Shown here one piece after another: positions 4,941 through 54,124 of a DNA stretch of 64,000 nt. Position numbers and translations under genes: made by a program. The notes under the pieces are model-generated. The model was not told where the DNA came from and did no database searches. It worked only from the letters and a program-made list of their open reading frames with translations. Location: positions 26,890 to 90,889 of the IMG/VR virus record IMGVR_UViG_3300008108_000067. The stretch is one strand, 5' to 3'. Each line of letters begins with the position of its first letter. Within the stretch, counting starts at the first letter, position 1. The DNA is from a virus.

Positions 4941-7793
4941 TCAGTTTGATATTGCTTTTTTAACTATACTCATTGCTGCGGTATATACTGGTTCTTTTTT
5001 ATCGTATTTTAACGCGGTTCCTACAAATATATCTCTATCCGTTTTTGGATTTCTAACTTTCTGTTTTAATACCTTTGCCAAAGTTTGACGTTTTGCCGGT
5101 GGTACGTTTGATACCATATCTTTGGGTGATTTTGTCGGTGTAACTTTTGGCTTTTGTTTCATTTTTGGAGCAGTTACATCTTTACCATGTGTCTGCGTCA
5201 ACTTCAAAGCTTCCTCTGAATCTGTTGTTACTTTAACAATTTTATCAAAGATTTTTTTGTCAAATTTACCGTATACTTTGGTAAATATTTCTTGCTTTGC
5301 TCTATCTGTTATGTTTGGATTTCCCATAACAGACCGAAGTTGTGTACCACTAATATTTTTACCATCAATTTGTAGTTGCATCTCAGGAGCAACTATAAAG
5401 TATCCTTGATCTGCGTATCCTTTGAGGTCTTTTTCTGGTACTTCTTCGTATGGTTTGAAATATTTTCCTCCCAACCGGTCAGCATCTTTTTGACTGACTG
5501 CTGTAACGTACACCGCGTCTGGTGGTAATTTACTTAATACTTCCGATGGTGCGTATGGATTTTTAACTTGTATTACGTTATCGTCTGGTATTCCAAACAT
5601 ACGAGTCATAATTTCTTTTTTGTCTTTGAACCCGAACGGTGATTTGGTTGCATCGGTTTTATCGCTCGATGCGATATATACATTATCTTTACCAAATTTC
5701 TTTACCATTGCTTGATAGATACTATAATGTCCAGCATGAAATGGTTGAAATCTTCCGGTAAATATAGCAGCAATTTTACGTTCCCCAACAGGTGTGGGTT
5801 CTGTCTTTTGCGCTTCCGGTTCTTTCTTTGGTTCTTCTACTGGTGCTTCTTCGGCTTTACCCTTCGCAAACTTCAAAGTTCCTAAAATTTGATTTACTGG
5901 TGCGAATGTACCTGTAAATTTATATGGTTTGCCGTTATATATAAACACCAATCCTTCTGATGGTACGACATTATCAATACCAATATCGTCCAATCGTTCA
6001 ATTTGTGTTTGTAGTTTTGCAAGTTTATTTATATCGTCTGTATCTTGTAGAGACTTAATAGTATCTAATAATTCTTTCTTCAACGATGCAGTTAATTCTG
6101 GATTGTTTGCCGATAACGTATTGGTAACACGACGAAGTGTATCAGCTCCTACTTTCAGAAAAATACTTTCTAATGGGCGTGTAACAGCTCGTTCCGAATT
6201 CGTTAATTCAGTTGCTTCAAATTGCCTAAACCATTTTTTGGTTTCTGGATCTTCAAAGTCCTTAACTCCAATAGCTTTCTTGTCTCCCGTTGCCCATCGT
6301 TTAACCAATCCATTAAATTGTTCTTCCGATAATTCCAATCCTTGTGTTTCTACTTGTCTGGTAAGTTCTCTTTCCCACCATGCTATTTTATAATCTTCCA
6401 AGGTATTTTTATCGTCAAGATCAAATTCTTGTTGTAGTCGTGTCAATGCTGCACCATACTCTTGCATTTTTTCTTTATTACGAGCAGTATCTGCGTCGCT
6501 AAATGCAATACTACGTGGTCCAGATATACCAAACGTTTTTTGTTGCTGTGCGTTTACTTTTGTAATTTGATCAGAAAGTTTTTTACTATCCTCTATATCA
6601 CGACCAATTTCGTTTCCTTCTTCGTCGTATTTAACAGTTCCATGAAATACCAAAACACTCTTGTCGTATGGTATAACGTTCTTTGTGTCTGGAAATATTA
6701 TCTCAACGTTCATAAATTTTGAACCGTCAGCAAACATCTGATCACGTTCTTCTTGTGGTAAAGCTTGAATAGCTTTAGTGATATCATCCGCAGCACCACC
6801 AAAAGCTTTTTCAACGTTACCTCGTCCGGCAAACATCTGTCGTAAATCTGCCGCAGGTAGTGCGTTTTTTGCTTTATTTTTTACTTGGCCTTTATTACGA
6901 GCAAAAACAACTTGACCATCTCTAACAGAAAACATGATATTTTGTCCATCAAGTTTTTCTGTGACAGGTGCTTCCGCATCTAACCCACCTACCAATCCAC
7001 GTTTAATCATTTCTTTTACATCAGAAAACTTTAATGTATCATCTTCATACGGATGTGCTAAATGTCCTGCCGCACCACCCTCAGATATTAATTGCCATGG
7101 ACCATTAGGAACATTACCTTCATATAGTTCAGAAAGATAAACATATTCTAAGCCTTCATTCTTTTTATCTCGTCCGTGGTCTTTACGAGCAAGTTTCCAG
7201 TTACCATTTTTTGCACCATTGGGATGATGTACATCATGGTTTTTCATTTTTGATTTGCCGTACTTCTTAACTGCCTTTTTGCGGTCACGGTTACGGGCAA
7301 CACGGTCATCCTGAGTCTTTTTAAGGTAGTTACGAACTTTTTCGGGATGACGGCGATTGTATCTCCGCATTCGTTCCGTGCTTGATAGTGCTTCATTATT
7401 GATGAATTCATCATCATGCTCCGGTCCAATAGAGTAAGGGTATGCAAATGCATTATCTTTATTTTGTGGTTTAATTTCATCCACTCCACCTTCACCTGCA
7501 CCTGTCTCTCCACCAGTATCACCGCTGTCTGTTGGTGGTGTTGTTGGTTCTTCTGCTGGTTGTTCACCAGTTTTTATTACACGAGGATATAATGGATAGA
7601 AAAATCCATAATTTTTTATTTTTTCTTTTGCTTTTTTACGCTTCTTCTTCATCTCATCCATTGAATCTGTGTGATTAATGGTTAGTTCACCAACAAGTTC
7701 TGGTGCCAACTTCGCAACCAAAAAATTATGTTGGTCAACATATTCATTTTCATTCAATATATTTTCAAATAAATTATTTATTGGATTACTCAT
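4941..7793 (-). CDS. Multidomain protein: HNH-like insert, ligase-like KxDG domain and HIGH-type (cytidylyltransferase-like) nucleotidyltransferase
   Basis: DVHHPNG; EKLDGQN...NVEII...VFHG...SEGLVF...YKF; FTGRFQPFHAGH...ISGTQLR. Confidence 0.7.
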   Translation of the reverse strand: MSNPINNLFENILNENEYVDQHNFLVAKLAPELVGELTINHTDSMDEMKKKRKKAKEKIKNYGFFYPLYPRVIKTGEQPAEEPTTPPTDSGDTGGETGAGEGGVDEIKPQNKDNAFAYPYSIGPEHDDEFINNEALSSTERMRRYNRRHPEKVRNYLKKTQDDRVARNRDRKKAVKKYGKSKMKNHDVHHPNGAKNGNWKLARKDHGRDKKNEGLEYVYLSELYEGNVPNGPWQLISEGGAAGHLAHPYEDDTLKFSDVKEMIKRGLVGGLDAEAPVTEKLDGQNIMFSVRDGQVVFARNKGQVKNKAKNALPAADLRQMFAGRGNVEKAFGGAADDITKAIQALPQEERDQMFADGSKFMNVEIIFPDTKNVIPYDKSVLVFHGTVKYDEEGNEIGRDIEDSKKLSDQITKVNAQQQKTFGISGPRSIAFSDADTARNKEKMQEYGAALTRLQQEFDLDDKNTLEDYKIAWWERELTRQVETQGLELSEEQFNGLVKRWATGDKKAIGVKDFEDPETKKWFRQFEATELTNSERAVTRPLESIFLKVGADTLRRVTNTLSANNPELTASLKKELLDTIKSLQDTDDINKLAKLQTQIERLDDIGIDNVVPSEGLVFIYNGKPYKFTGTFAPVNQILGTLKFAKGKAEEAPVEEPKKEPEAQKTEPTPVGERKIAAIFTGRFQPFHAGHYSIYQAMVKKFGKDNVYIASSDKTDATKSPFGFKDKKEIMTRMFGIPDDNVIQVKNPYAPSEVLSKLPPDAVYVTAVSQKDADRLGGKYFKPYEEVPEKDLKGYADQGYFIVAPEMQLQIDGKNISGTQLRSVMGNPNITDRAKQEIFTKVYGKFDKKIFDKIVKVTTDSEEALKLTQTHGKDVTAPKMKQKPKVTPTKSPKDMVSNVPPAKRQTLAKVLKQKVRNPKTDRDIFVGTALKYDKKEPVYTAAMSIVKKAISN

Positions 7794-39830: not shown

Positions 39831-39863
39831 TAAAGTTTATGTAGTTTTAAATTAGTTTATAAG

Positions 39864-39936
39864 AGCCACGAATCGGGTTTGAACCGATGCGCTCCCGCTT
39901 ACAAGGCGGGTGCTCTACCAGCTGAGCTATCGTGGC
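39864..39936 (-). tRNA. tRNA-Thr(TGT)
   Basis: Cloverleaf; anticodon arm CCCGC-CTTGTAA-GCGGG. Confidence 0.93.
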
Positions 39937-39941
39937 GTTTA

Positions 39942-40026
39942 CGGACAGGGAGGGATTCGAACTCTCGGAACCTTTCGGTTCGACGGTTTTCAAGACCGTT
40001 GCAATAGACCACTCTGCCACCTGTCC
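39942..40026 (-). tRNA. tRNA-Ser(TGA)
   Basis: ACGGT-CTTGAAA-ACCGT; long variable arm; G73. Confidence 0.93.
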
Positions 40027-40034
40027 CGAAATAA

Positions 40035-40119
40035 AATAAGAACGCTCCCTATCAAACAGTTACCTGTTCTTCCTGCCACCACAACAAGTGCGCCACACTA
40101 CGCACGGGATGTTCTTATT
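40035..40119 (-). ncRNA. Candidate structured RNA between tRNA-Gly and tRNA-Ser
   Basis: Terminal stem AATAAGAAC..TCCC/GGGA..GTTCTTATT; GTGCG/CGCAC hairpin; AACAG-GTAA-CTGTT GNRA hairpin. Confidence 0.5.
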
Positions 40120-40123
40120 AAAA

Positions 40124-40196
40124 TGGAGCGGTCTGCCAGAGTTGAACTGCTCTTGTAAGCTGGAAGCTTACCGTGCTGACGTTACACTAAGACCGC
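40124..40196 (-). tRNA. tRNA-Gly(TCC), imperfect T-stem, encoded CCA
   Basis: GTAAG-CTTCCAG-CTTAC; acceptor GCGGTCT/AGACCGC; only 3 clean T-stem pairs. Confidence 0.7.
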
Positions 40197-40202
40197 GTGT
40201 TG

Positions 40203-40391
40203 TTACTTGGCTGCTGGACCTTCCTTTGGGGTGACCACGGTTGTGTCTGCTGCCTTGATTGAATCGGTGTTCAACTTAGTTGAATCAACTACCACTACGG
40301 TACTATCAGTGGTAACTTCACCCTGAACTTCTTCTGTCTTGGCACATGCCGTCAAACCAACTACTGCTACTGTAAGGATAAACTTGTACAT
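40203..40391 (-). CDS. Small lipoprotein
   Basis: Signal peptide with lipobox LTAC; GGAG SD before ATG 40391. Confidence 0.75.
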   Translation of the reverse strand: MYKFILTVAVVGLTACAKTEEVQGEVTTDSTVVVVDSTKLNTDSIKAADTTVVTPKEGPAAK

Positions 40392-40452
40392 TATGTACGC
40401 TCCATAAAATGAATAATGAAACAACCATTTAAAAATACTACGATACTACAAG

Positions 40453-40523
40453 TTGCCCTCCATGGAATCGAACCACGATTCGCTGATCCAAAGTCAGCTG
40501 TATTGCCATTATACGAGAGGGCA
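40453..40523 (-). tRNA. tRNA-Gln(TTG)
   Basis: GCTGA-CTTTGGA-TCAGC; U1-A72. Confidence 0.92.
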
Positions 40524-40524
40524 A

Positions 40525-40609
40525 TGGTGGGAAGGGGATTGATAGATTCCACTCTATCCAGCACCCCACGGACTAGAACCGTTTCCCATGCTGTTGCAAC
40601 ATTCCACCA
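40525..40609 (-). ncRNA. Candidate tRNA-like RNA with rearranged arms, ending in ACCA
   Basis: T-loop-like hairpin ACGG-TTCTAGT-CCGT precedes D-loop-like GATAGA-GTGGAA-TCTATC; 3' end TTCCCACCA. Confidence 0.5.
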
Positions 40610-40700
40610 AGTTGCCAAGCGTGTACACCCGCGTTGTATACACAAAACGGTAGAGTTCATTAATTAACGTCAGACCACTCTACCAAGCTGACGGGATCAA

Positions 40701-40793
40701 TTAGTGATTACGCTTACGATTCTTCCAACGATTTCTTCGTTTTTTCGAACCGACCTTTCTCCGACCTTTACCGCACTTTTTAGGATGTGGCAT
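40701..40793 (-). CDS. 30-aa highly basic peptide MPHPKKCGKGRRKVGSKKRRNRWKNRKRNH
   Basis: Manual translation; GGAG SD upstream. Confidence 0.65.
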   Translation of the reverse strand: MPHPKKCGKGRRKVGSKKRRNRWKNRKRNH

Positions 40794-40808
40794 CTCGTTC
40801 TCCAAAAA

Positions 40809-40882
40809 TGGTCCCTGAGGGACTTGAACCCCCGCACTTCGAATTATGAGTTCGCTGCTCTAACCGACTGAGCTAAGGGACC
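40809..40882 (-). tRNA. tRNA(CAT), probably Ile2 (lysidine type)
   Basis: Loop CTCATAA; body GGTCCCTTAGCTCAG resembles bacterial tRNA-Ile2. Confidence 0.8.
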
Positions 40883-40927
40883 GATAACTTCTATACAAGA
40901 GTTACTATTGAAAATTTACATAACCAG

Positions 40928-41001
40928 TCCGCCCCGCAGGACTTGAACCTGCACATCTTCGGTATATAAGACCGCTGCTGTCACCATTTAGCTAGAGGCG
41001 G
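40928..41001 (-). tRNA. tRNA-Ile(TAT)
   Basis: Anticodon arm GCGGT-CTTATAT-ACCGA; acceptor CCGCCTC/GGGGCGG; A73. Confidence 0.85.
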
Positions 41002-41016
41002 ATAATTCTATTTTAG

Positions 41017-41088
41017 TACCGCGTACGGGAATCGAACCCGTCTTACCAGAGTGAAAGTCTAGCGTCCTAGCCGATAGACGAACGCGGC
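41017..41088 (-). tRNA. tRNA-Glu(TTC)
   Basis: CTAGA-CTTTCAC-TCTGG. Confidence 0.93.
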
Positions 41089-41105
41089 ATCACATCAACA
41101 TTAAA

Positions 41106-41134
41106 AATATACATAGTCTGTTACTGTTTGTCAA
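41106..41134 (-). promoter_or_regulatory. Sigma70-type promoter TTGACA-N17-TATATT
   Basis: Immediately upstream of tRNA-Glu. Confidence 0.8.
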
Positions 41135-41147
41135 GCCTTGAATGATA

Positions 41148-41660
41148 TCAAAATCCCCGATATGCCATAATATTAGTTATTTTTTCACCAACTACACTAA
41201 TACTATCTACTACCTTTACTTTTTTATCATCCAAATATACTGTAATTTCATTTACCGATGTTCTGTTATTTTCACCGGAATTATTTACAACAATTCGAAT
41301 TGATTTAAATTGTTCAAATAATTTTCGGTTTTCTTCCAATACAGCTACTTTACCAGTAAATACATTTTCGTTCCATTCCGACAGTACTACATCATCTGCG
41401 TATAGTGTACTTAATCGTTTTAAATCTTTTGCAGAAAATGCATCGAAGTATTCTTTTACTATGTTTCCAATAGGTTTTTCTCTACTTAGTGGAAACAACA
41501 ACCACGCAACTAAATACACAGTAACAATTGGAAGTGGTGAAAAGAAAGAACAAATAAATACAAATCGGATGAATACAGGATCTATATTTAATTGCTCACC
41601 AATTCCTCCGCAAAATCCAGCAAGTCTTTTATTGGTTGCACTACGATAAAATTTTCTCAT
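41148..41660 (-). CDS. PspC-domain and NTF2/SnoaL-like fusion protein
   Basis: FYRSATNKRLAGFCGGIGEQLNIDPVFIR (PspC); YFDAFSAKDL...LYADDV (SnoaL-like). Confidence 0.8.
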   Translation of the reverse strand: MRKFYRSATNKRLAGFCGGIGEQLNIDPVFIRFVFICSFFSPLPIVTVYLVAWLLFPLSREKPIGNIVKEYFDAFSAKDLKRLSTLYADDVVLSEWNENVFTGKVAVLEENRKLFEQFKSIRIVVNNSGENNRTSVNEITVYLDDKKVKVVDSISVVGEKITNIMAYRGF

Positions 41661-41676
41661 ATATTCTCCTAGTTAG

Positions 41677-41750
41677 TCGGGGCGGAGGGATTTGAACCCC
41701 CGACCTCCTGCTCCCAAAGCAGGCGCGATACCAGGCTACGCTACGCCCCG
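41677..41750 (-). tRNA. tRNA-Pro(TGG)
   Basis: CCTGC-TTTGGGA-GCAGG. Confidence 0.95.
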
Positions 41751-41753
41751 AAG

Positions 41754-41834
41754 TGCTCTCGGTGAGACTCGAACTCACAAGCCTTGCGGCAGCAGTTTTT
41801 GAGACTGCCATGTATACCATTCCATCACAAGAGC
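41754..41834 (-). tRNA. tRNA-Leu(CAA)
   Basis: GCAGT-CTCAAAA-ACTGC; long variable arm. Confidence 0.93.
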
Positions 41835-41871
41835 GTTCATTACTTCCATTCATTCATTAACATTTTAAATG

Positions 41872-42098
41872 TGTAGTACAGCGGGAAAGGTGTTGTCCTG
41901 CAATCGGGTGATGAGTAGTTGCAACTCTTATCTGTGTATCGTCGTTATTCATCCTCAACTCAATGGAGTTGTTATCGGATATTTTTCTGCACGACCACCC
42001 CTATACATCGTCGTTATTCATCCTAACCCCAGGGGGTTTTCATCAGACGCCTTTCCATACGACCACTAACCGGCTAAGAGCCGTCCTGCTGTACTACA
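41872..42098 (-). ncRNA. Candidate 227-nt structured RNA with two tandem homologous domains
   Basis: 15-bp terminal stem; 18-nt direct repeat at 41938 and 42007; covarying internal hairpins. Confidence 0.65.
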
Positions 42099-42169
42099 TG
42101 GCTCGCTTGGGAGTCGAACCCAACTTTCTAGGTTATGATCCTAGCGTGACACCAGTTCACTTGCCAGCT
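42099..42169 (-). tRNA. Atypical or degenerate tRNA(CAT)
   Basis: CTAGG-ATCATAA-CCTAG; canonical T-arm; acceptor has A1-C72 and G5-G68 mismatches. Confidence 0.6.
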
Positions 42170-42217
42170 ACTGAAATTCTACACCTTGCCATATATTCAA
42201 TGATTTCCTTATTTTCA

Positions 42218-42246
42218 AGTATAATCAATGCTTCTTCTAATGTCAA
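42218..42246 (-). promoter_or_regulatory. Sigma70-type promoter TTGACA-N17-TATACT
   Basis: Upstream of the atypical tRNA(CAT) and the 227-nt RNA. Confidence 0.7.
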
Positions 42247-42366
42247 GTATTTAATTACCATAATATTCTCGTGTTGTAAAACATAACGACAGGACTTACG
42301 ACATAAGACATTCCATTCTTTCTGTTCGCCTACTACCAGTGGGTTGGTGGTTATCGTTATGTTTAG

Positions 42367-42438
42367 AGCACGTGGCGGGAATCGAACCCGCGTCTCTAGC
42401 TTGGAAGGCTAGGATAATAGCCATTATATGACACGTGC
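42367..42438 (-). tRNA. tRNA-Gly(TCC)
   Basis: CTAGC-CTTCCAA-GCTAG. Confidence 0.92.
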
Positions 42439-42537
42439 GGCGAGGTCTTTTTCACGCAGTTCCTCATCTTCGGTCTGGCACGATTCCAGACGAGTTGCGC
42501 TTGCTTTTAAGCTGCTTTCAACCCCCACAACTATTTT

Positions 42538-42747
42538 TTATTCAGAAAAATACTTATTCAAAGTTTCTAACTTATCATCGGCATCAACAAGCATCTGTAA
42601 TGCTTCTTCTGCATTCTTATAAAAATCACCAGTAGAATGGTCACCAATCCCAACAGGAACATTCATCAACAAGTCCAGTGAGAGAAGTGCCTTCTGTCGT
42701 TCTGCTTCTGCTTGCGTTCGTAACATTTCAACTACACGTGCTTTCAT
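42538..42747 (-). CDS. Small hypothetical protein (PVGIGDHS motif)
   Basis: GGAGG SD before ATG 42747. Confidence 0.75.
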   Translation of the reverse strand: MKARVVEMLRTQAEAERQKALLSLDLLMNVPVGIGDHSTGDFYKNAEEALQMLVDADDKLETLNKYFSE

Positions 42748-42767
42748 AATAACCTCCATTAGTAAAA

Positions 42768-42841
42768 TGGACGCTGAGGGATTCGAACCCCCGACATTTT
42801 GCGTGTAAAGCAAACACTCTAACCAGCTGAGTTAAGCGTCC
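42768..42841 (-). tRNA. tRNA-Val(TAC)
   Basis: TTTGC-TTTACAC-GCAAA. Confidence 0.93.
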
Positions 42842-42938
42842 GTTGTTGTCTATGAAGCCCTTTCACAAAATGTCGGACAACGCGACTACCGAGCGCAAGT
42901 ATACGCGTATCAAGCTGGGCCGCCCTCGGAATTAAAAA

Positions 42939-43011
42939 TGGATCCAGTCGGGATCGAACCGACGACCTTTCGCTTGCAAAGCGGATGCTCTCCCAGCTGA
43001 GCTATGGACCC
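42939..43011 (-). tRNA. tRNA-Ala(TGC)
   Basis: G3-U70; loop TTTGCAA. Confidence 0.94.
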
Positions 43012-43577
43012 GTGTTGTACGGAATTAAATTTAACAAGTATTCCTGATTTGTCAAGAACCATTCATACGTTAAATTTTCTGGTATTTCTATTAATTGGTT
43101 TTGACCACGTTCTAAAATGGTTAATCCCAACTCTATGTTAAATGTTTTAACAGAAAAATCTGTACGTTGACTTCTGAATTTTGCTACTGCTTTCCACACA
43201 TCTCCTGTCCACAATCCACGTTCACATAATTCTGTGTGGTGTGGCATTGGTGAACGTTGCATCAATTCGGTATGTGGTTTTGTATCGTGAACAAATATGA
43301 TACCATTATCATTTAGATGTCGAATGCTGTTATCTATATCTCTTAGGACTTGATTACATTCGTGGTCACCATCAATGAAAATAATATCATACATTTCGGT
43401 ACAGTTTTCAAAAAACTCATCAGATGTCATAGGGTATAACATATCTTTGTTATATGGATCTACCCCGTGCTTGATTGCACATTCTACATTGTAAAATGTA
43501 CCACCGTTACTAACACCGATTTCTAAGTATCTTGTATAATTTCGTTCAGCAATTACAGAATTAAATAATTCAAACAT
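43002..43577 (-). CDS. Class I SAM-dependent methyltransferase (Methyltransf_24-like)
   Basis: YLEIGV, DIIFIDGDH, GIIFVHD, WTGDVWK; start at 43577 after the GGAG SD. Confidence 0.85.
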   Translation of the reverse strand: MFELFNSVIAERNYTRYLEIGVSNGGTFYNVECAIKHGVDPYNKDMLYPMTSDEFFENCTEMYDIIFIDGDHECNQVLRDIDNSIRHLNDNGIIFVHDTKPHTELMQRSPMPHHTELCERGLWTGDVWKAVAKFRSQRTDFSVKTFNIELGLTILERGQNQLIEIPENLTYEWFLTNQEYLLNLIPYNTGP

Positions 43578-43589
43578 ATTTTCTCCAAG

Positions 43590-43661
43590 AGCGAGAGATG
43601 GGATTCGAACCCACGACAACGTGCTTGGCAAGCACGGACTCTACCACTGAGCTACTCTCGC
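43590..43661 (-). tRNA. tRNA-Gly(GCC)
   Basis: CGTGC-TTGCCAA-GCACG. Confidence 0.93.
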
Positions 43662-43666
43662 ATTTA

Positions 43667-43831
43667 CTACACAGGACCAACTTCATAATGCGTCAATACT
43701 TTTCCTTTTAATGCTGCTTGTGCATCAACATCATTACGAAACATCGTAATAGCTGCCGTTGCTTCAGGTGCCATATATGTAAAATCCATACTACCACCAT
43801 CAAAATATATTTTTACTAAATATTTACTCAT
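43667..43831 (-). CDS. 54-aa hypothetical protein MSKYLVKIYFDGGSMDFTY...
   Basis: Manual translation; fills the gap between two tRNAs. Confidence 0.6.
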   Translation of the reverse strand: MSKYLVKIYFDGGSMDFTYMAPEATAAITMFRNDVDAQAALKGKVLTHYEVGPV

Positions 43832-43839
43832 ATAGTTAG

Positions 43840-43922
43840 TGCTCCTGGTCGGACTCGAACCGACAAGCCTTGTGAGCGAGAGATTTTAAGTCTCTTGTGT
43901 TTACCGATTTCACCACAGGAGC
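43840..43922 (-). tRNA. tRNA-Leu(TAA)
   Basis: AGAGA-CTTAAAA-TCTCT; long variable arm. Confidence 0.93.
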
Positions 43923-43937
43923 AAAATTGGATGAGTT

Positions 43938-44133
43938 GTTGTAGTATCCTCTCATTTTATAGAGAAGAATTTACCTATCATCATTAGTGCCATCCTCACT
44001 AATGTTTATCCATACACGTTGATTTCTACTTACGGACTCTTCCCCTGCACCGTTGTAGTGGTGTCTCGACGTAAGGATCATAGAGAAGTCGTGTGGCGCG
44101 GGTTTAAACCATACCGCGGGTAAATTCTACAAC
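43938..44133 (-). ncRNA. Candidate ~200-nt multibranched structured RNA
   Basis: Nested stems GTTGTAG/CTACAAC, AATTTACC/GGTAAATT, CGCGG/CCGCG, CACG/CGTG, CTTACG/CGTAAG, CATTAGTG/CACTAATG. Confidence 0.55.
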
Positions 44134-44158
44134 CACCTTTACATTTTTTAATCAGCAG

Positions 44159-44232
44159 TGCCCCCACTAGGACTCGAACCTAGAACTTACTGGTTAAAAG
44201 CCAGCTACTCTGACCAATTGAGTTATGGAGGC
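44159..44232 (-). tRNA. tRNA-Lys(TTT)
   Basis: GCTGG-CTTTTAA-CCAGT. Confidence 0.93.
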
Positions 44233-44249
44233 GTTTAACTTACACAAGT

Positions 44250-44278
44250 AATATATATTACCCACGTACAAATGTCAA
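44250..44278 (-). promoter_or_regulatory. Sigma70-type promoter TTGACA-N17-TATATT
   Basis: Immediately upstream of tRNA-Lys. Confidence 0.8.
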
Positions 44279-44305
44279 GCCCCCAATCTAAATAAATAGT
44301 AAATA

Positions 44306-44419
44306 TTATTTTTTTCGTTTTTTTGGAGTCTTTTTTACGGTTGTAGATTTTACTTTTATTCTAGCTTGCCACGATTTCTTTGGTTTTCTCGTGTGTGACT
44401 TTCTTCGTGTCCATGCCAT
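44306..44419 (-). CDS. 37-aa highly basic peptide MAWTRRKSHTRKPKKSWQARIKVKSTTVKKTPKKRKK
   Basis: Manual translation; AGGAG SD upstream. Confidence 0.6.
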   Translation of the reverse strand: MAWTRRKSHTRKPKKSWQARIKVKSTTVKKTPKKRKK

Positions 44420-44439
44420 ATATACATTTCTCCTATTAA

Positions 44440-44526
44440 CGGAAGAGGTGGGATTCGAACCCACGGTAGGAATTACCCTACGGCTGTTTAGTAGACAGCT
44501 GCCTTAAACCACTCGGCCACCCTTCC
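44440..44526 (-). tRNA. tRNA-Ser(ACT), unusual A34 anticodon
   Basis: GCTGT-CTACTAA-ACAGC; Ser-type body with long variable arm and G73. Confidence 0.88.
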
Positions 44527-44531
44527 AACAC

Positions 44532-45557
44532 TCACTGATAATCAGCTCTCCAAACATTGCTTGTTTCTGAGTAACTTTCATTCAATATTTTTAACGAGTA
44601 TTCTACGTAATTATCACCATCAAACCAACCAGAACCCTTATGCTTAACCATATCTACATATCCACGAAGTTGAATTTTTGTGATATTATGGTTACCTGCT
44701 TGTAGAAAATATTGTACAGTTCCACCTTTATCGTGACTAATAGTTAATTGTAACTTATCACTTCCAAATTCTTTCCACAATTGTTCCAAATCTTCATGTT
44801 GTCCTTTATGTGCTTTAAATTCATTTGGATAATGACAAGAAATCCAATTAAATTTATGTAGATTAGCACATTCTCGTGACAATCCCACAAAATCATTTCT
44901 AACCTTTTGTTGTTGCAAATTAAAAACTAGTCGTGGATTGTTTATATAATGTTTATCCGATAATCGTTCGTTTACTGTTAATTTCCGTATCATATAATCG
45001 TATGTTAATGAATTTTCATCATATATGTCCATACGCACAGGTTCATCAAAGATATATTCTTTTTCTTTGTATCTGAAATTATACGGATACGCATCTCCAG
45101 CCAACGAAACAAATACAGAACGATTAACCGTTGTTAATCCTTGAATTGAGTCCAAATGATTTTTAAAATTTGGAAGAAACTCAATGTCGGTGTCGGTATG
45201 AAAAATCCAATCGGCATCAAAGAAATTATATTTTTTGGAATAGTCAAACATCATATTCATGTTTAACCCAATCTTTGCAAACCAATGTTGGCTTTTCATA
45301 AACTCTACTGATTTTTCTGGAAGTTCCATTTCATTAACATTACGAACTTCTACGATATCTTCCAATCCAAAATCTTTAACACGTTGCCACGTTAAACTAT
45401 CTTCTGATTTTTCTGGATTTGCATTGTTAAAAAGTATAACCTTAGTTTCAAAATGTGGAACTACGTTAACTTTTAAAGAAGCCAAATAAAGATTTATGTA
45501 TCGTAAATCTTCTTCTTCATTTGTTTTTCCACAAGTTGATAGTATCAAAATTTTCAT
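44532..45557 (-). CDS. Putative GT-A fold glycosyltransferase-like protein
   Basis: WIFHTDTDIEF DxD motif; start at 45557 after the GGAG SD. Confidence 0.5.
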   Translation of the reverse strand: MKILILSTCGKTNEEEDLRYINLYLASLKVNVVPHFETKVILFNNANPEKSEDSLTWQRVKDFGLEDIVEVRNVNEMELPEKSVEFMKSQHWFAKIGLNMNMMFDYSKKYNFFDADWIFHTDTDIEFLPNFKNHLDSIQGLTTVNRSVFVSLAGDAYPYNFRYKEKEYIFDEPVRMDIYDENSLTYDYMIRKLTVNERLSDKHYINNPRLVFNLQQQKVRNDFVGLSRECANLHKFNWISCHYPNEFKAHKGQHEDLEQLWKEFGSDKLQLTISHDKGGTVQYFLQAGNHNITKIQLRGYVDMVKHKGSGWFDGDNYVEYSLKILNESYSETSNVWRADYQ

Positions 45558-45572
45558 AATTTCTCCAAAATA

Positions 45573-45646
45573 CGGAATGGACGGGACTCGAACCCGCAAC
45601 CCCCGCAGTGACAGTGCGGTGCGCTAACCGATTGCGCCACCACTCC
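45573..45646 (-). tRNA. tRNA-Asp(GTC)
   Basis: CCGCA-CTGTCAC-TGCGG. Confidence 0.94.
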
Positions 45647-45655
45647 CAGCAACAA

Positions 45656-45913
45656 TTATTTAATTTTACTCTGCGTTACTGTTTCGTAAAGTTTTTCAAA
45701 CTCTTGATGCGTTGCTACTTCGTCATCAAAATTCTGCTTGTGATACGTCTTTGCTAACTTACGAAAAACTTTCTTGTTAAGTTGAAGTTCTTCACAGATA
45801 TCATTGATAATGTTTTTCTGTAAGTCTCGTTCTGCGGAAATTCGTGTCATAGATACACTCATATCCTTTAATGCACCTTCCAACTTCAACTTGTCATTCG
45901 GTGTTAAATTCAT
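45656..45913 (-). CDS. Double-stranded DNA-binding protein (T4 DsbA / GapR-like)
   Basis: SMTRISAERDLQKNI...KKVFRKLAKTYHKQNF...FEKLYE. Confidence 0.75.
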   Translation of the reverse strand: MNLTPNDKLKLEGALKDMSVSMTRISAERDLQKNIINDICEELQLNKKVFRKLAKTYHKQNFDDEVATHQEFEKLYETVTQSKIK

Positions 45914-45955
45914 AATAACCTCGTTGTTGTGATGTTGTAAATAAAATGTTTTTCG

Positions 45956-46051
45956 TTATGAATCTTCTTTTTCTAAGAATCTAGCAATGTATACAGTTCC
46001 ACCCACTGCACACATCATAACCACTAAAAATATTAGAATTGCGGATAACAT
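45956..46051 (-). CDS. 31-aa membrane peptide MLSAILIFLVVMMCAVGGTVYIARFLEKEDS
   Basis: AGGAG SD; one TM segment. Confidence 0.55.
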   Translation of the reverse strand: MLSAILIFLVVMMCAVGGTVYIARFLEKEDS

Positions 46052-46069
46052 ATTTTCTCCTATGGTAAG

Positions 46070-46142
46070 CTCCCAGAGAGGGACTCGAACCCCCGACCCG
46101 GTGATTAACAGTCACCTGCTCTACCGACTGAGCTATCTGGGA
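46070..46142 (-). tRNA. tRNA-Asn(GTT)
   Basis: GGTGA-CTGTTAA-TCACC. Confidence 0.94.
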
Positions 46143-46264
46143 ATATTGTGAGATTCGCACTCACTTGGGGTCATTCAGCAACATCTACATATCAGCAGTT
46201 GCCACCGATATGTCTCTGGTATCAGCCTTCACCCCTAGCTTACCAAATTAAAACTTATCTTCCT

Positions 46265-47389
46265 TTATGGTACTATAACTACCTTTGCATTATCCGAAAC
46301 TGTTCCAATTGATGCCGAAACAAATGTGGTTCCTGGCGCGATACCCAACAAAAGACCAATATTCGACACTCGTGCTGTTGCATTGTTAGTGGTGGTCCAC
46401 TCAAACGGACGACCATTCAGTGCTGCGACACTCAAAGGAACACTATCAGCATCAAATGCTGTGGCTGTGTATTGACGGGTAGCACCCACCTTCAGGTCTG
46501 AACTATCAGGTGAAACCACAATGTAATCAATACCCACTTCTGTTACATTCACCACCAATGTACCCACTCTGTTTTCAACAACACAAGTAATAATCGTGGT
46601 ACCGTAGGTAAGGCCTGTGATTACACCCGTTGCAGAAACGGTAGCAATGGATTCATCACTACTATGCCAACCAAATGTGCGTTGTGCAGCGGTCAGTGCT
46701 GTACCTGAACTGTTACGCAAATCTGCGACAACTGTTGCAGGGCGTCCAACATGAGCTGGCTTAGGCAATGTGAGAAGTACACGAGCGACAGGAACCAAAG
46801 ATACCGTGACGTTCAACGTACCTGTTTTTCCACCCGAAGTTGCGGTAATAGTAGTTGTACCTGCCGACAATGCAGTAATCAATCCTGTTGCGGACACTGA
46901 GGCGACGGCTGGCGTGCTTGATGTCCAAGTAGTGGTGAATGATGTCAGTGTATTATTTCCACTGTCCCGTGCAACAGAGGTTGCCTGTAATGTCTGACCA
47001 ACAAAAAACGTAGGCGGTACAGTTGCCGTTACTGTGACAGTAGCTACTGTTGGGTCTGTTACGAAAATCGTAGCAGTTGCGAATTTACCACCCACTGCCG
47101 CTGTAATTGTAGCTTGACCCTTGGATACTCCTGTTACTAACCCATTAACAACTGTTGCGACCGATGTATTATTTGATGACCATGCAACTGTTTGATCTCT
47201 CATAACAGAATCACGTTGATCTTTAACAGTGGGCGTGATGTTAATTGTACGTCCAATTTCAAGTTGTGTAGCAGTAACATTTAATGATACTGTTGTTACC
47301 GCCGGTGTTACTGGAGCCGTAACAACGGCTTCTTCCGTGCACGCGGTAATACTCAATGCCAACAATGTTCCATACAAAATACGCTTCAT
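46265..47389 (-). CDS. Lipoprotein with four bacterial Ig-like (Big_2) domains
   Basis: Lipobox ITAC; four repeats of W-x-S/T...VA-x-V...G-x-V/I/L...G-x-T/A. Confidence 0.88.
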   Translation of the reverse strand: MKRILYGTLLALSITACTEEAVVTAPVTPAVTTVSLNVTATQLEIGRTINITPTVKDQRDSVMRDQTVAWSSNNTSVATVVNGLVTGVSKGQATITAAVGGKFATATIFVTDPTVATVTVTATVPPTFFVGQTLQATSVARDSGNNTLTSFTTTWTSSTPAVASVSATGLITALSAGTTTITATSGGKTGTLNVTVSLVPVARVLLTLPKPAHVGRPATVVADLRNSSGTALTAAQRTFGWHSSDESIATVSATGVITGLTYGTTIITCVVENRVGTLVVNVTEVGIDYIVVSPDSSDLKVGATRQYTATAFDADSVPLSVAALNGRPFEWTTTNNATARVSNIGLLLGIAPGTTFVSASIGTVSDNAKVVIVP

Positions 47390-47457
47390 TTTTTTCTCCT
47401 ACTAAGGTAATCCGACACAACCGAGTGTTGTGCCTTCTAAGCCGGGATATCCCGACA

Positions 47458-47529
47458 CAGGCCCACTAGGACTCGAACCTAGACAAACGCTTTTGGAGAG
47501 CGTTGTGCTGCCAATTACACCATGAACCC
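47458..47529 (-). tRNA. tRNA-Trp(CCA)
   Basis: ACGCT-CTCCAAA-AGCGT. Confidence 0.92.
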
Positions 47530-47533
47530 AGAG

Positions 47534-47607
47534 TACACCAGGCTAGAGTTGAACTAGCGACCTTTCGTGTATCAGACGAATGCTCTAACCAACTGAGCTA
47601 CTGGTGT
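47534..47607 (-). tRNA. tRNA-Ile(GAT)
   Basis: TTCGT-CTGATAC-ACGAA. Confidence 0.92.
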
Positions 47608-47620
47608 GCATCTTACAAAA

Positions 47621-47703
47621 TGGGAGTGGTTGGACTCGAACCAACGTAGATTATTAATCGGCAGATTTACAGTCTGCTGCCATTGCCGCTAGGCGACACT
47701 CCC
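47621..47703 (-). tRNA. tRNA-Tyr(GTA)
   Basis: GCAGA-CTGTAAA-TCTGC; long variable arm. Confidence 0.93.
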
Positions 47704-47709
47704 AAACTA

Positions 47710-48291
47710 CTATTTTTTCAAATCGTTTTTGATGTCTCGTTTGACCTTTTTAAGATAACCAATTCGCGTTTCATTGTCAACGAATGGTACACTCCAAAAC
47801 TGTCGTGTATTTGTCTTAAACCACCCAAATACAAATGAATATACTCCTAATACTAACCGTAATTTTACGGCATTGAAATATAACATATATACAGGAAGTG
47901 CGGGTGCTCCGTGTGTTAAGTATGTACGAACCTTTTTGTGTGACAATAATGGTTTTGGATAACCATATTTTGGAATTAACGGAACAAACTTATATGCGAA
48001 TCCTGGTGTGAATACCACATCAAAGAATTCTTCCATTAGTGGTGTACACCGAAACCACCACACAGGTGATATAATGTAAATTCTATCTGCCCATGTCACC
48101 AACTCTTGATAATGTTTAATAACTTCTTTCTTTTTGATGGAAAGATCATCTTTATAGAGGTCAATGACTTCTATGGTTTGTGTAGATTCATAGCTTGCGT
48201 TATTAGTTAATTCGTCTTTAATGGTTTTAAAAATACCATTATAACAAAAACTTTTCTTATCAGGATGTCCGATGACTATTAAATTGTTCAT
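47710..48291 (-). CDS. Flavodoxin-like NAD(P)H-dependent oxidoreductase
   Basis: IGHPDKKSF, IDLYKD, SPVWWF, VFTPGFAY. Confidence 0.88.
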   Translation of the reverse strand: MNNLIVIGHPDKKSFCYNGIFKTIKDELTNNASYESTQTIEVIDLYKDDLSIKKKEVIKHYQELVTWADRIYIISPVWWFRCTPLMEEFFDVVFTPGFAYKFVPLIPKYGYPKPLLSHKKVRTYLTHGAPALPVYMLYFNAVKLRLVLGVYSFVFGWFKTNTRQFWSVPFVDNETRIGYLKKVKRDIKNDLKK

Positions 48292-48319
48292 TTCACTCCT
48301 TGTAAAAGTTATAAAACAA

Positions 48320-48393
48320 TAGCGGGGGAGGGATTCGAACCCTCGACCTCACGATTATGAGTCGTGCGCTCTCACCAACTGAGCTACCCTGCC
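48320..48393 (-). tRNA. tRNA-Met(CAT), elongator type
   Basis: CACGA-CTCATAA-TCGTG. Confidence 0.9.
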
Positions 48394-48545
48394 ACTTTTC
48401 GAATGTATACTTTAAACCAAATAAATATTTTATCTAAATTGGAAAACGTTCTCCAATTCTTAACTTCGTTAATTGTACGATAACATCCTACACAACGTGT
48501 ACCTTCAAGTTTACATATTTTTTTACACGGAGAATTTATAACCAC
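48384..48545 (-). CDS. DUF1289-like small Cys protein (53 aa, GTG start)
   Basis: SPCKKICKL...CVGCYRTINEVKNW; manual translation. Confidence 0.75.
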   Translation of the reverse strand: MVINSPCKKICKLEGTRCVGCYRTINEVKNWRTFSNLDKIFIWFKVYIRKVAG

Positions 48546-48814
48546 CGAAATATTCCTGTTATGTCAATTAGTATCCATACCGCATTGACAATAACCATTG
48601 GATAATCTTTCTTATTAAAGAAACTGTGTAACATTCCACCGTGTCCAAAAAAGAAAAGTAAATATGGTATCCACATAGGAATGTTAGGAATTCTACCAGC
48701 TAATATAATTCCACCCACAATTAAAATTAATACAGCCCACCATTTACGTTTAACAATAATGTGCTCTTCTGTTTCTGTTAAAGTTACTGGTTTCGCAAAT
48801 AAAATATTTTTCAT
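48536..48814 (-). CDS. Small multi-pass membrane protein
   Basis: Three hydrophobic segments. Confidence 0.7.
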   Translation of the reverse strand: MKNILFAKPVTLTETEEHIIVKRKWWAVLILIVGGIILAGRIPNIPMWIPYLLFFFGHGGMLHSFFNKKDYPMVIVNAVWILIDITGIFRWL

Positions 48815-48966
48815 TTATATTGACCAGTATCTATTGAATTCTGGATATCACCACCTTGTAACACTTCTGGTTCGGTATCCCCTATAAACATAATAACACC
48901 AAAAAATATCATTACAACAATAACCAAAGTAGTTGCGATTACTTTTTTAACTTGTTTAGTATCCAT
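48811..48966 (-). CDS. Small single-pass membrane protein
   Basis: Start moved to ATG 48966 (AGGAG SD); the longer ORF reads through tRNAs. Confidence 0.6.
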   Translation of the reverse strand: MDTKQVKKVIATTLVIVVMIFFGVIMFIGDTEPEVLQGGDIQNSIDTGQYK

Positions 48967-48985
48967 AATATAATCTCCTATAAAA

Positions 48986-49068
48986 AGGTGCGAGCCAGAT
49001 TCGAACTGGCGTGGGATTTCTCCAAAGGTTTTGCAGACCCGTGCCTTCAGCCACTCGGCCATCGCACC
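48986..49068 (-). tRNA. tRNA-Cys(GCA) with a long variable arm
   Basis: Loop CTGCAAA; U73; extra arm TGGAGAAATCCCAC. Confidence 0.85.
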
Positions 49069-49071
49069 GTA

Positions 49072-49145
49072 TGCTCCTGGAGGGACTCGAACCCCCAACC
49101 CACTGAGTAGAAATCAGTTGCGCTATCCAATTACGCCACAGAAGC
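49072..49145 (-). tRNA. tRNA-Arg(TCT)
   Basis: ACTGA-TTTCTAC-TCAGT. Confidence 0.92.
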
Positions 49146-49179
49146 AGTTAATGTATTTGACCAAATTACAAAATATATT

Positions 49180-49539
49180 TTATTTACCTAAACTATGTCG
49201 AATAGGTTTTCCTGTTTCATCAACACACACAAATACCATCTCATCAATATCAACAATAACTTTTTGTGTAGTTAAATCTCGTACTTGCACTTCCAAAGTA
49301 ATAGAAGTTTTTCCAACGGTTTTTAACGCCACTCCGATTTCAACAACATCCCCTTGATATGCAGGTGCAACAAAGTTAATAGCAGACATACTTTTTGTCA
49401 CAACTTTTTTATGTCGGGTTTCAATTGCCGCATAAATTGATGCTTCTTCGTCAACCCAAGCCAAACACCGGCCCCCGAACAATGTGCCGTTTATATTTAA
49501 ATCACCTGGTTGCACCAATTTTCTAGTTAAGAATCTCAT
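49180..49539 (-). CDS. Acyl-CoA thioesterase (hotdog fold)
   Basis: PGDLNINGTLFGGRCLAWVDE, INFVAP, VGKTSI. Confidence 0.9.
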   Translation of the reverse strand: MRFLTRKLVQPGDLNINGTLFGGRCLAWVDEEASIYAAIETRHKKVVTKSMSAINFVAPAYQGDVVEIGVALKTVGKTSITLEVQVRDLTTQKVIVDIDEMVFVCVDETGKPIRHSLGK

Positions 49540-49560
49540 AAAATTTTTGTTTAAATGTTA

Positions 49561-49634
49561 TGCCCCAAGCAGGAGTCGAACCCACAACCCTCTGATCCGA
49601 AGTCAGATGCTCTATCCAATTGAGCTATTGAGGC
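49561..49634 (-). tRNA. tRNA-Arg(TCG)
   Basis: TCTGA-CTTCGGA-TCAGA; A20 in the D-loop. Confidence 0.9.
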
Positions 49635-49637
49635 GTA

Positions 49638-49706
49638 TCAGGTAGGAGGGAGTCTCTCCCCCCGTTCCACAGGCGGGTGCCCCTACCATCTGGGCCGCAT
49701 ACCTGA
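49638..49706 (-). ncRNA. tRNA-His(GTG)-like element lacking a canonical T-loop
   Basis: D-arm GCCC-AGATGGTAG-GGGC; anticodon loop CTGTGGA; T-arm replaced by GGGAG-AGA-CTCCC. Confidence 0.5.
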
Positions 49707-49738
49707 ATTATGTTTTCATATAATACCATTGGGAATAA

Positions 49739-50116
49739 TTATATTTTTCTTACGCTGCCATCTTCGTTTTCGGTACACTTTCGAAACCAAATTACGCCTG
49801 CTTCATTTCTATGTTTTCCGAAACACAATACCGCGGTGATACCAAAATTCCACGGATCATTAGGGTTAACCTTCTTGCCATTCACTCGTAACTGCGTGGG
49901 ATTCTTTTTGAACTGTCCTTTACTCTTGACGAATCCAGCCGATTCAAAGACATCCAGTATGGTTTGTTTTTCTGGTAATTCAATAAATCGTAAACCAACT
50001 GCGAACACACAATCTGCCACACTATTTCTATCCAGCTTCGTACATGTCATCACATCTTCTAATGAGGTGATATCATTAAAATCTTCGGGAGTTAAAAACG
50101 GCTTTTCATCATCCAT
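49739..50116 (-). CDS. Hypothetical protein with an S4-like RNA-binding motif
   Basis: ILDVFESAGFVKSKGQF...LRVNGKKV resembles the TyrRS C-terminal S4 domain. Confidence 0.55.
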   Translation of the reverse strand: MDDEKPFLTPEDFNDITSLEDVMTCTKLDRNSVADCVFAVGLRFIELPEKQTILDVFESAGFVKSKGQFKKNPTQLRVNGKKVNPNDPWNFGITAVLCFGKHRNEAGVIWFRKCTENEDGSVRKI

Positions 50117-50119
50117 GTA

Positions 50120-50527
50120 TTAATCCCATAATCCTTCGTAATATTTTCCAAACAATCGAAGTCCATTAATGATACGTACTTGGTTTACATATTTTTCCGT
50201 CCAAGTGCAATTTTGTTTACTTTCAAAGGCAAAAATCATTTCATCCATGACCCAATCCCATCGCTTAAAATAATTGTCATCCGTATCCCAATCATTTTCA
50301 GTCGGTGGAGCTGCTGATTTGCGAAGGTGTTCGGGAACATCTTCGTCATCAACATGTGGTGCGCCGTGTTTTGTTTCTTTCAATTGCTTAAGCATAGGAA
50401 GAATGATATGCGCTAATGTCACATCCATGCTCCATGTATCCCATGGATCAATTTTCACAGAAATCTTCTGTTCTTTGTTTGAATCTTTTGGATAGCGACC
50501 AATGGAAACTTTCATATTAATATTCAA
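50120..50527 (-). CDS. Phage hypothetical protein
   Basis: DPWDTWSMD...RWDWVMDEMIFAF...GLRLFGKYYEGLWD. Confidence 0.75.
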   Translation of the reverse strand: MNINMKVSIGRYPKDSNKEQKISVKIDPWDTWSMDVTLAHIILPMLKQLKETKHGAPHVDDEDVPEHLRKSAAPPTENDWDTDDNYFKRWDWVMDEMIFAFESKQNCTWTEKYVNQVRIINGLRLFGKYYEGLWD

Positions 50528-50810
50528 CCTTGATATAATGTTCTGTTGTGAGATGCATCTTTTTACGATAGAAATGTTTCATCTTGTAAGCCAACATTAC
50601 AACTACAACTATAAAATTGAAAATATAATTCATCATCAATGGAATATTCCACAACATAATAGCATACGTTGTCATGAATATTTCACCAATAAACCAAAGT
50701 AACAACATAGGCCAACCGATATGACATCGTTTATCCGTAATGGTTCTAAACAACTCCGGAATAGCATTAATCGTGAGAAAAATACTCCCTATATATCCAA
50801 TCGTTTCCAT
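50517..50810 (-). CDS. PQ-loop/SemiSWEET-like membrane protein
   Basis: IGYIGSIFLTINAIPEL; three TM segments; PLMMNY. Confidence 0.7.
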   Translation of the reverse strand: METIGYIGSIFLTINAIPELFRTITDKRCHIGWPMLLLWFIGEIFMTTYAIMLWNIPLMMNYIFNFIVVVVMLAYKMKHFYRKKMHLTTEHYIKVEY

Positions 50811-50832
50811 ATTATTTACCCAAATGTTTTTA

Positions 50833-50916
50833 TGCACTCGGAGGGACTCGAACCCCCAATCCATTTCTGGAACTTGCTCCTAAGGCAAGCGCGTAGACCA
50901 ATTCCGCCACGAGTGC
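50833..50916 (-). tRNA. tRNA-Leu(TAG)
   Basis: CTTGC-CTTAGGA-GCAAG; long variable arm. Confidence 0.93.
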
Positions 50917-50925
50917 AACAACTAC

Positions 50926-53748: not shown

Positions 53749-53785
53749 TGTTTACTCCAACAAAATGTAAACACTAACCGTTAAG

Positions 53786-54124
53786 TGGACCTGAGGGGAA
53801 TCGAACCCCTGTCCGAGATTGCTTCCTACTAAATGTTTATGTGTGTAGTCAGTTATTTGAATTCATTCAGTTCTCATTAACTAACAAACGTAAACTGAAT
53901 ATAGAACCGAAGTATCACCTTGAATACGGTTCCTATCAAGGCTATACCACATAAATGAACAAATTAACCCTATGCGGTAATCTCAGATTAATTCGTCAGG
54001 CTGCAATTAAGCAGCGAGGGCTAAAGTATAGTTGCCAGTTAGATTTTTTGGTCTGTTTTACTCGTCTTACCAAACGAGACACAAAACTTAATCATCCACA
54101 CCCCGTCGAAACCAGGACAGGCCC
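53786..54124 (-). ncRNA. ssrA: tmRNA; tag reading frame GNYTLALAA* at 54036-54007
   Basis: 5' GGGCCTG..GGTTTCGAC, 3' GGTTCGATTCCCCTCAGGTCCA; G3-U70; TAACT before the resume codon; tag ends ALAA. Confidence 0.93.

Follow-up and report, generated by a model that had tools for sequence, protein, structure and literature searches.

The tRNA clusters of phages are usually read as codon-usage or anti-defence supplies of tRNA. Theta ribozymes are also known beside phage tRNAs, and nobody, to our knowledge, knows the role of the structured RNAs in such clusters, half a century after RNAC and RNAD of phage T4 were found in an equivalent place. T4 rnaC and rnaD are stable RNAs of unknown function from the phage tRNA region (PMC3014915; PMC9697503). 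In the T4 layout, tRNA-Arg is followed after 1 nucleotide (nt) by rnaD and, 6 nt beyond that, by rnaC. Here, we focus on nine spacers, termed EL1 to EL9, in the tRNA array of a phage represented by the 90.9-kb IMG/VR virus record IMGVR_UViG_3300008108_000067. The window, by which we mean the whole stretch of DNA analysed, is 64,000 nt long and comprises bases 26890-90889 of this record. Comparison with related loci suggests that four of the nine spacers are new RNA families with good support and three are weak candidates; of the other two, one has no informative homologue and one is a broken tRNA.

The array contains 27 tRNA genes at 39863-50917, all on the minus strand and called in agreement by ARAGORN and Rfam. 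A sequence-only reading of the window had singled out nine spacers as structured modules abutting tRNAs, and this observation is largely right as a whole. All nine lie between minus-strand tRNA genes at distances of 0-20 nt, and they are not AT-rich filler: their G+C content is 41-65%, compared with approximately 30-37% in neighbouring open reading frames (ORFs). That all nine are self-complementary modules holds for EL1, EL2, EL3 and EL7, which are real families, but EL9 is a damaged tRNA-His, EL8 is without comparative support and EL4 to EL6 have little.

40035-40119, minus strand: EL1, a predicted RNA of ~85 nt with a long closing stem round three hairpins and an invariant purine-rich segment
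40524-40697, minus strand: EL2, a predicted RNA of ~174 nt ending at the 5′ end of tRNA-Gln(UUG)
41872-42098, minus strand: EL3, a predicted multibranched RNA of ~227 nt; its closing stem, of 11-14 base pairs (bp), begins at the 3′ terminus of a tRNA-Met with a low score
42279-42364, minus strand: EL4, 86 nt in length, closed by a 13-bp stem and starting 1 nt after tRNA-Gly(UCC)
42440-42528, minus strand: EL5, a spacer of ~89 nt, 3 nt before tRNA-Gly(UCC)
42845-42929, minus strand: EL6, an insert of ~85 nt between tRNA-Ala and tRNA-Val
43938-44133, minus strand: EL7, a predicted RNA of ~195 nt between tRNA-Lys(UUU) and tRNA-Leu(UAA)
46148-46237, minus strand: EL8, a spacer of 90 nt that contains a 12-bp hairpin and ends 5 nt before tRNA-Asn
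49638-49706, minus strand: EL9, a tRNA-His(GUG) remnant, 3 nt before tRNA-Arg(UCG)

For the four families, the analysis shows that sequence, array position and strand are conserved, that paired positions covary, that pseudoknots are present in two of them and that Rfam has no counterpart. A total of 185 related loci were gathered from IMG/VR and JGI/ENA metagenomes, with two array ORFs and short conserved motifs as queries. Elements were placed in these relatives by iterated nhmmer and their tRNA context was taken from ARAGORN maps, giving 8 distinct sequences of EL1, 11 of EL2, 9 of EL3 and 33 of EL7 from related uncultured phages. All four elements recur at fixed places in the array, on the tRNA strand in every case. 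Structure models were obtained with RNAalifold, pseudoknots being added by hand, and were scored against shuffled and slid controls; a double change denotes a pair altered on both sides with pairing kept. The sequence-only reading had pointed to conservation and covariation in related phage contigs as the evidence to seek, and both are found for EL1, EL2, EL3 and EL7, with covariation above shuffled and slid controls in each family.

EL1 begins 4 nt after tRNA-Gly(UCC) in the window and ends 8 nt before tRNA-Ser(UGA), while in relatives it lies 5-13 nt before tRNA-Ser(UGA). Its model has 31 pairs that are 98% paired (n = 8), with double changes at 9 pairs against 3.2 ± 1.3 in shuffled and 0-2 in slid controls. 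EL3 has a highly conserved core and follows tRNA-Gly(UCC) or tRNA-Met and precedes tRNA-Leu(CAA) or tRNA-Thr in relatives; its 56 pairs are 97% paired (n = 9), and 17 of them show double changes (7.0 ± 1.8 shuffled, 0-3 slid). An internal duplication of one EL3 arm is confined to the window and its nearest relative, other members having a different second arm. G-U pairs far outnumber A-C mismatches in both EL1 (31 versus 5) and EL3 (54 versus 2), which indicates an RNA read from the tRNA strand. A 19-mer from the EL3 core was not found in 185,579 species genomes, except for one chance match inside a long ORF (Mur ligase-like by eye). The lowest-scoring tRNAs of the array, both on the minus strand, stand directly 5′ of these two elements: tRNA-Gly(UCC) at 40124-40196 (42 bits) precedes EL1, and tRNA-Met(CAU) at 42098-42170 (38 bits), whose acceptor stem is poor by eye, precedes EL3.

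EL2 opens at its 5′ end with an H-type pseudoknot, continues with two hairpins that vary among homologues, and closes with a three-way junction at the 3′ end. The segment originally flagged, 40525-40609, is indeed structured but is merely the three-way junction, that is, the 3′ domain of the 174-nt element. The two stems of the pseudoknot are formed as follows:

40693-40688 with 40673-40668, minus strand: stem 1 of the EL2 5′ H-type pseudoknot
40683-40677 with 40656-40650, minus strand: stem 2 of the EL2 5′ H-type pseudoknot

Covariation is seen in both stems. Over the whole element, 43 pairs are 88.5% paired (n = 11), and double changes affect 27 pairs, against 14.7 ± 2.2 when shuffled and 6-10 when slid. 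In many arrays EL2 starts 1-3 nt after tRNA-Glu, and the order Glu-EL2-Gln survives reshuffling of the remaining array. In the window, EL2 is preceded by a micro-ORF for an extremely basic product of 30 amino acids (aa; MPHPKKCGKGRRK...), at 40701-40793 on the minus strand and ending 3-5 nt before EL2. This micro-ORF is 90-100% conserved in five relatives, and its nucleotide differences fall nearly all at third codon positions (in one example, 15/16 are synonymous), for which reason we regard it as a real gene. It is missing from arrays of the Glu-EL2-Gln type.

EL7 provides the largest data set. Its distance to the following tRNA-Leu(UAA) is invariably 8-16 nt, and the preceding tRNA is usually tRNA-Lys(UUU). 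It folds as a four-way junction with a pseudoknot, in which the 5′ heptamer GUUGUAG (44133-44127) pairs with the inner-hairpin loop ACUACAAC. A divergent clade has GUUAUGG with ACCAUAAC, two compensatory pseudoknot pairs that probably represent one evolutionary event. Pairing in the pseudoknot reaches 98.3%, and two of its pairs covary (n = 33). In a 12-sequence set, the 49 pairs of the model are 96.2% paired and 19 show double changes (8.4 ± 1.7 shuffled, 1-5 slid); in the set of 33 distinct full-length sequences from IMG/VR and metagenomes, they are 90.7% paired, with 139 double-change cells against 48.7 ± 7.4 shuffled. Terminal stems, which the sequence-only reading had reported for most spacers, are present in EL1, EL3, EL4, EL8 and EL9 and, by minimum free energy, in EL2 and EL7; EL7 stands as a conserved structured element, but comparative data disfavour its minimum-free-energy closing stem and prefer the pseudoknot. 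Nucleotide identity of EL7 between the window and contig L005 is 79%, compared with only 42% protein identity for the 341-aa ORF ~300 nt upstream.

By its large terminase, the phage has Flavobacterium phage immuto (54% identity) and, slightly further off, Microcystis phage Mel-JY01 (52%) as nearest cultured relatives. An EL7 covariance model gave no significant match in either of them, nor in three larger IMG/VR relatives or 75 more distant loci. Upstream of EL7 by 140-170 nt is a further basic micro-ORF, of 37 aa (MAWTRRKSHTRKPKK...), at 44306-44419 on the minus strand; a recognizable homologue precedes EL7 in about one-third of EL7 loci, including those of the divergent L100/L160 clade (51% identity). 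Neither this micro-ORF nor the 30-aa one has a Pfam or PHROGs match. The heptamer GAGGAUG, invariant in the EL7 hairpin loop, is also present in the conserved core of EL3, although it is short and the match could be coincidence. It resembles the GGA-in-a-loop motif bound by CsrA. GGA motifs number one to three per RNA in EL3 and EL7, about the chance expectation, and Csr/Rsm families of Rfam gave no match on the spacers (E ≤ 10).

Variable columns of the elements show no 3-nt periodicity and 1-nt indels occur inside conserved cores; the elements are therefore non-coding. Long unpaired blocks stay invariant, among them the AGGAUGR hairpin loop of EL7, ~20 nt of purine-rich sequence in EL1 and three segments of EL3; they point to tertiary or intermolecular contacts, not mere stems. 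The sequence-only reading could not match the spacers by eye to families such as GOLLD, ROOL, Y-like RNAs or theta ribozymes. None of the nine has a credible match in Rfam 15 (E ≤ 10), and at gathering thresholds only tRNA and transfer-messenger RNA (tmRNA) models pass in the window. Divergent homologues of EL2, EL3 and EL7 likewise have no Rfam 15 match at E ≤ 5. Searches of GenBank phages with megablast and blastn returned tRNA matches only or none; in 50,697 GenBank phage records, blastn found no counterpart of EL2, EL3 or EL7. ARAGORN at relaxed, intron and mitochondrial settings yielded only noise in the spacers. One repeat family, or a set of miniature inverted-repeat transposable elements (MITEs), was considered and rejected: the spacers are not paralogues of one another, and each family is single-copy in the genome.

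Folding energies are less uniform. Compared with dinucleotide shuffles, folding is modestly better for several elements, as the sequence-only reading would have it, but not for all. The z scores are -4.2 (to -4.4) for EL1, -3.0 (to -3.1) for EL8, -2.7 (to -2.9) for EL4, -2.6 for EL3, -2.2 for EL7, -1.8 for the 3′ part of EL2 and -1.4 for EL9, against a baseline of -0.4 ± 1.2 in 90-nt coding windows. EL5 (-0.25) and EL6 (+0.13) have values near zero and therefore fold no better than chance.

EL4, EL5 and EL6 are weak candidates for structured RNA genes. EL4 has only two homologues, both near-identical (L005 and L021), with one G-U to A-U change in a stem. EL5 has three homologues, a few compensatory changes by eye and no energy signal. 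EL6 also lacks an energy signal; one of its two homologues is divergent and carries, by eye, two compensatory changes in two hairpins, and the flanking tRNA-Ala and tRNA-Val are adjacent in some relatives. EL8 is represented by identical copies only, in near-identical contigs. A 67-nt spacer absent from the sequence-only list, at 47390-47456 on the minus strand, has two hairpins (z ~-2.9) and lies between tRNA-Trp, directly 5′ of it, and an ORF for a Big_2 protein; its conservation is confined to the two closest relatives.

EL9 had been put forward as a new structured RNA, a proposal that fails. At the same position in the nearest relative, L009, ARAGORN calls a tRNA-His(GUG) 3 nt before tRNA-Arg, which scores 41.3 bits with the Rfam tRNA model, and the EL9 homologue profile matches tRNAs. 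The window copy is without 6 nt (GGGTTC) of the T arm and has no tRNA match by ARAGORN or Rfam model RF00005; neither tRNA-His nor tRNA-Phe is called in the window array by ARAGORN or Rfam. As judged from these sequences, a deletion of 6 nt has inactivated the tRNA-His gene that EL9 once was, although the gap may also stem from an assembly error.

Transcription of the array from sigma-70-type promoters, also part of the sequence-only interpretation, is consistent with three near-consensus sites that head units of tRNAs plus elements:

44250-44278, minus strand: sigma-70-type promoter-like site (TTGACA, 17 nt, TATATT; 11/12 matches) heading tRNA-Lys - EL7 - tRNA-Leu
42218-42246, minus strand: sigma-70-type promoter-like site (TTGACA, 17 nt, TATACT; 11/12 matches) heading tRNA-Met - EL3 - tRNA-Leu(CAA) - tRNA-Pro
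41106-41134, minus strand: sigma-70-type promoter-like site (TTGACA, 17 nt, TATATT; 11/12 matches) heading tRNA-Glu/Ile/Met - micro-ORF - EL2 - tRNA-Gln and onward to EL1

These are the best sigma-70-type matches of the region, all on the minus strand, and they are consensus matches only. Terminator-like sites are not above shuffles (7 versus 7.7).

We consider it likely that EL1, EL2, EL3 and EL7, and possibly EL4 to EL6, are distinct, uncatalogued genes for structured non-coding RNAs (ncRNAs) within polycistronic tRNA operons, that their products are released by tRNA processing and act in trans, and that EL9 is a decayed tRNA-His. The RNAs would be transcribed together with the tRNAs from the sigma-70-type promoters. 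The elements lie so close to tRNAs that their ends could be defined by tRNA-processing enzymes, and would most likely be set by maturation of the neighbouring tRNAs: RNase P would cut at the 5′ end of the downstream tRNA, and 3′-end processing of the upstream tRNA would set the other end. The products would be stable RNAs of 85-230 nt acting in trans, probably as scaffolds that bind protein or RNA. By analogy with RNAC and RNAD of T4, stable RNAs cut from tRNA precursors are the likeliest outcome. Co-transcription, processing, stability and action in trans are what we infer from this arrangement, and the interpretation given by the sequence-only reading, namely that tRNA processing releases a set of small RNAs, is partly supported as a whole.

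Several points weigh against trans-acting RNA genes. Single-sequence folding energies are unremarkable for several elements, and by folding energy the opposite strand folds about equally well. The strand signal from G-U pairs is weak in EL2 (28 versus 16 A-C) and uninformative in EL7 (44 versus 39). The sequence sets for EL1 to EL3 are small (8-11), and one divergent clade supplies much of the EL7 covariation, including both pseudoknot changes, so that few events are represented. Finally, a purely cis role in folding or processing of the precursor would give the same comparative signal.

Such a cis role is the main rival, though we regard it as unlikely. The structured spacers would then be parts of the precursor that insulate tRNAs or guide and time cleavage, for example as sites for RNase III or RNase E, and would later be degraded with no function in trans. 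This would fit the proximity of every element to a tRNA (within 0-20 nt), the fixed tRNA partners (EL2 with Gln, EL7 with Leu(UAA), EL1 with Ser(UGA)) and the long closing helices of several elements. However, long invariant unpaired segments, multi-way junctions and covarying pseudoknots go far beyond what a processing stem needs, and in many related arrays the same tRNAs stand 1-5 nt apart with no spacer RNA between them.

It is very improbable that the elements are self-cleaving ribozymes, for instance theta ribozymes of the HDV-like kind, serving to release the upstream tRNA at its 3′ end. HDV-family models of Rfam gave no match on the spacers, and no ribozyme family of any kind is matched even at E ≤ 10; the EL2 pseudoknot has no room for the P3/L3 of an HDV fold, a CUGAUGA string in the window copy of EL3 is not conserved, and 175-230 nt exceeds the size of small self-cleavers. 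In favour of ribozymes are the pseudoknots of EL2 and EL7 and the position of EL1, EL3, EL4 and EL6, as well as of EL2 in Glu-EL2-Gln arrays, which start 0-4 nt downstream of the 3′ end of a tRNA. Harder still to credit as a general account is that the elements are tRNAs that have decayed or been rearranged, or that they mimic tRNAs, for example as Y-RNA-like partners of Ro60. EL9 is exactly such a case, and in the EL2 3′ domain the loops of two hairpins loosely recall T and D loops, with ACCA at the end of the window copy; yet this end is present in the window and its nearest relatives only and is not conserved in homologues, the other elements have no tRNA or YrlA match (E ≤ 10), relaxed ARAGORN finds nothing credible, and neither TROVE (in five records that are 47-89% complete) nor RtcB (in this record) was found. 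DNA-level features, whether MITE-like insertions with terminal inverted repeats or recombination hairpins, are the least credible reading, for although EL1, EL3 and EL4 have terminal inverted repeats and not every related array contains the elements, each family is single-copy with no repeat family among the spacers, terminal stems covary with their sequence not fixed, and EL1 and EL3 have strand-specific G-U pairs.

The remaining features of the record are given for completeness. It has a G+C content of 37.8% and a completeness of ~47% (CheckV), and the large terminase of the phage is T4-type. Accessory ORFs dispersed in the array encode a methyltransferase, the Big_2 protein, a flavodoxin-like protein, a 4HBT thioesterase and a PspC-SnoaL protein. 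A tRNA-Ser with anticodon ACU (A34), at 44439-44527 on the minus strand, is called in nearly all related arrays mapped and is thus a conserved feature, no error. A 950-aa protein (4941-7793, minus strand) has a cytidylyltransferase-like domain at residues 677-820 as its sole Pfam match. Beyond the array lies the following gene:

53785-54124, minus strand: tmRNA, called by ARAGORN and Rfam

If the elements are indeed trans-acting RNA genes, the micro-ORFs may be relevant to them. The 30-aa product, rich in Arg, might partner EL2 as an RNA-binding peptide. More tentatively, the arrays of this lineage of lake phages may carry, as a toolkit, four or more new classes of pseudoknotted functional RNA, some of them partnering Arg/Lys-rich micro-proteins (30 aa and 37 aa) as ribonucleoproteins directed against host translation, tRNA metabolism or tRNA-directed defence. 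The same operons that supply tRNAs hold several unrelated, strongly conserved and elaborately folded RNAs, two with pseudoknots. These families suggest that phages in general may use tRNA processing to deliver small RNAs. Their natural variants, which number in the dozens, offer covariation-based structures and clear constructs for biochemistry.

The EL RNAs share features with several described systems. Like GOLLD and ROOL, they are orphan, highly structured ncRNAs beside phage tRNA genes. GOLLD and ROOL RNAs are several hundred nucleotides long, whereas the EL RNAs measure 85-230 nt and have no Rfam match. Y RNAs (YrlA, RF02553) are likewise small structured RNAs in phage tRNA clusters; the YrlA model gave only sub-threshold matches in the window (20-26 bits versus 69), on true tRNAs and none on spacers, and no TROVE (Ro60) gene was found in the record or in four related, fragmentary records. 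As with HDV-like theta ribozymes, pseudoknotted RNAs stand immediately 3′ of phage tRNA genes, but the nested double pseudoknot P1-P2-P3-P1.1-P4 is not reproduced, the EL2 pseudoknot having ~3 nt where a P3/L3 hairpin is needed. Reverse transcriptase (RVT_1), the hallmark of retron/DRT/UG27-like ncRNA arrays, has no match in this record or the four related fragmentary records. Structured RNA candidates have been predicted en masse from IMG/VR, yielding 8,495 IMG/VR candidates, tRNA-like ones included (PMC10690425). Our analysis shares with that catalogue its IMG/VR data and covariation evidence; the text of that paper describes no tRNA-array spacer RNAs.

The T4 RNAs offer several parallels. 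T4 rnaC (species 1, 139 nt) and rnaD (species 2, 119 nt) are, like the EL RNAs, small structured RNAs on the tRNA strand that abut tRNAs in a phage cluster; they are co-transcribed with the cluster, at whose end they sit 1-6 nt from a tRNA gene. When the T4 tRNA region was searched with the four family profiles (nhmmer), EL3 and EL7 gave no match, and EL1 and EL2 gave only matches at E = 0.36 and 1.4, not at rnaC or rnaD. T4 rnaC ends in a T-arm-like hairpin, unlike the EL RNAs, and the arrays described here differ from T4 in holding at least four unrelated families each, two of them with pseudoknots.

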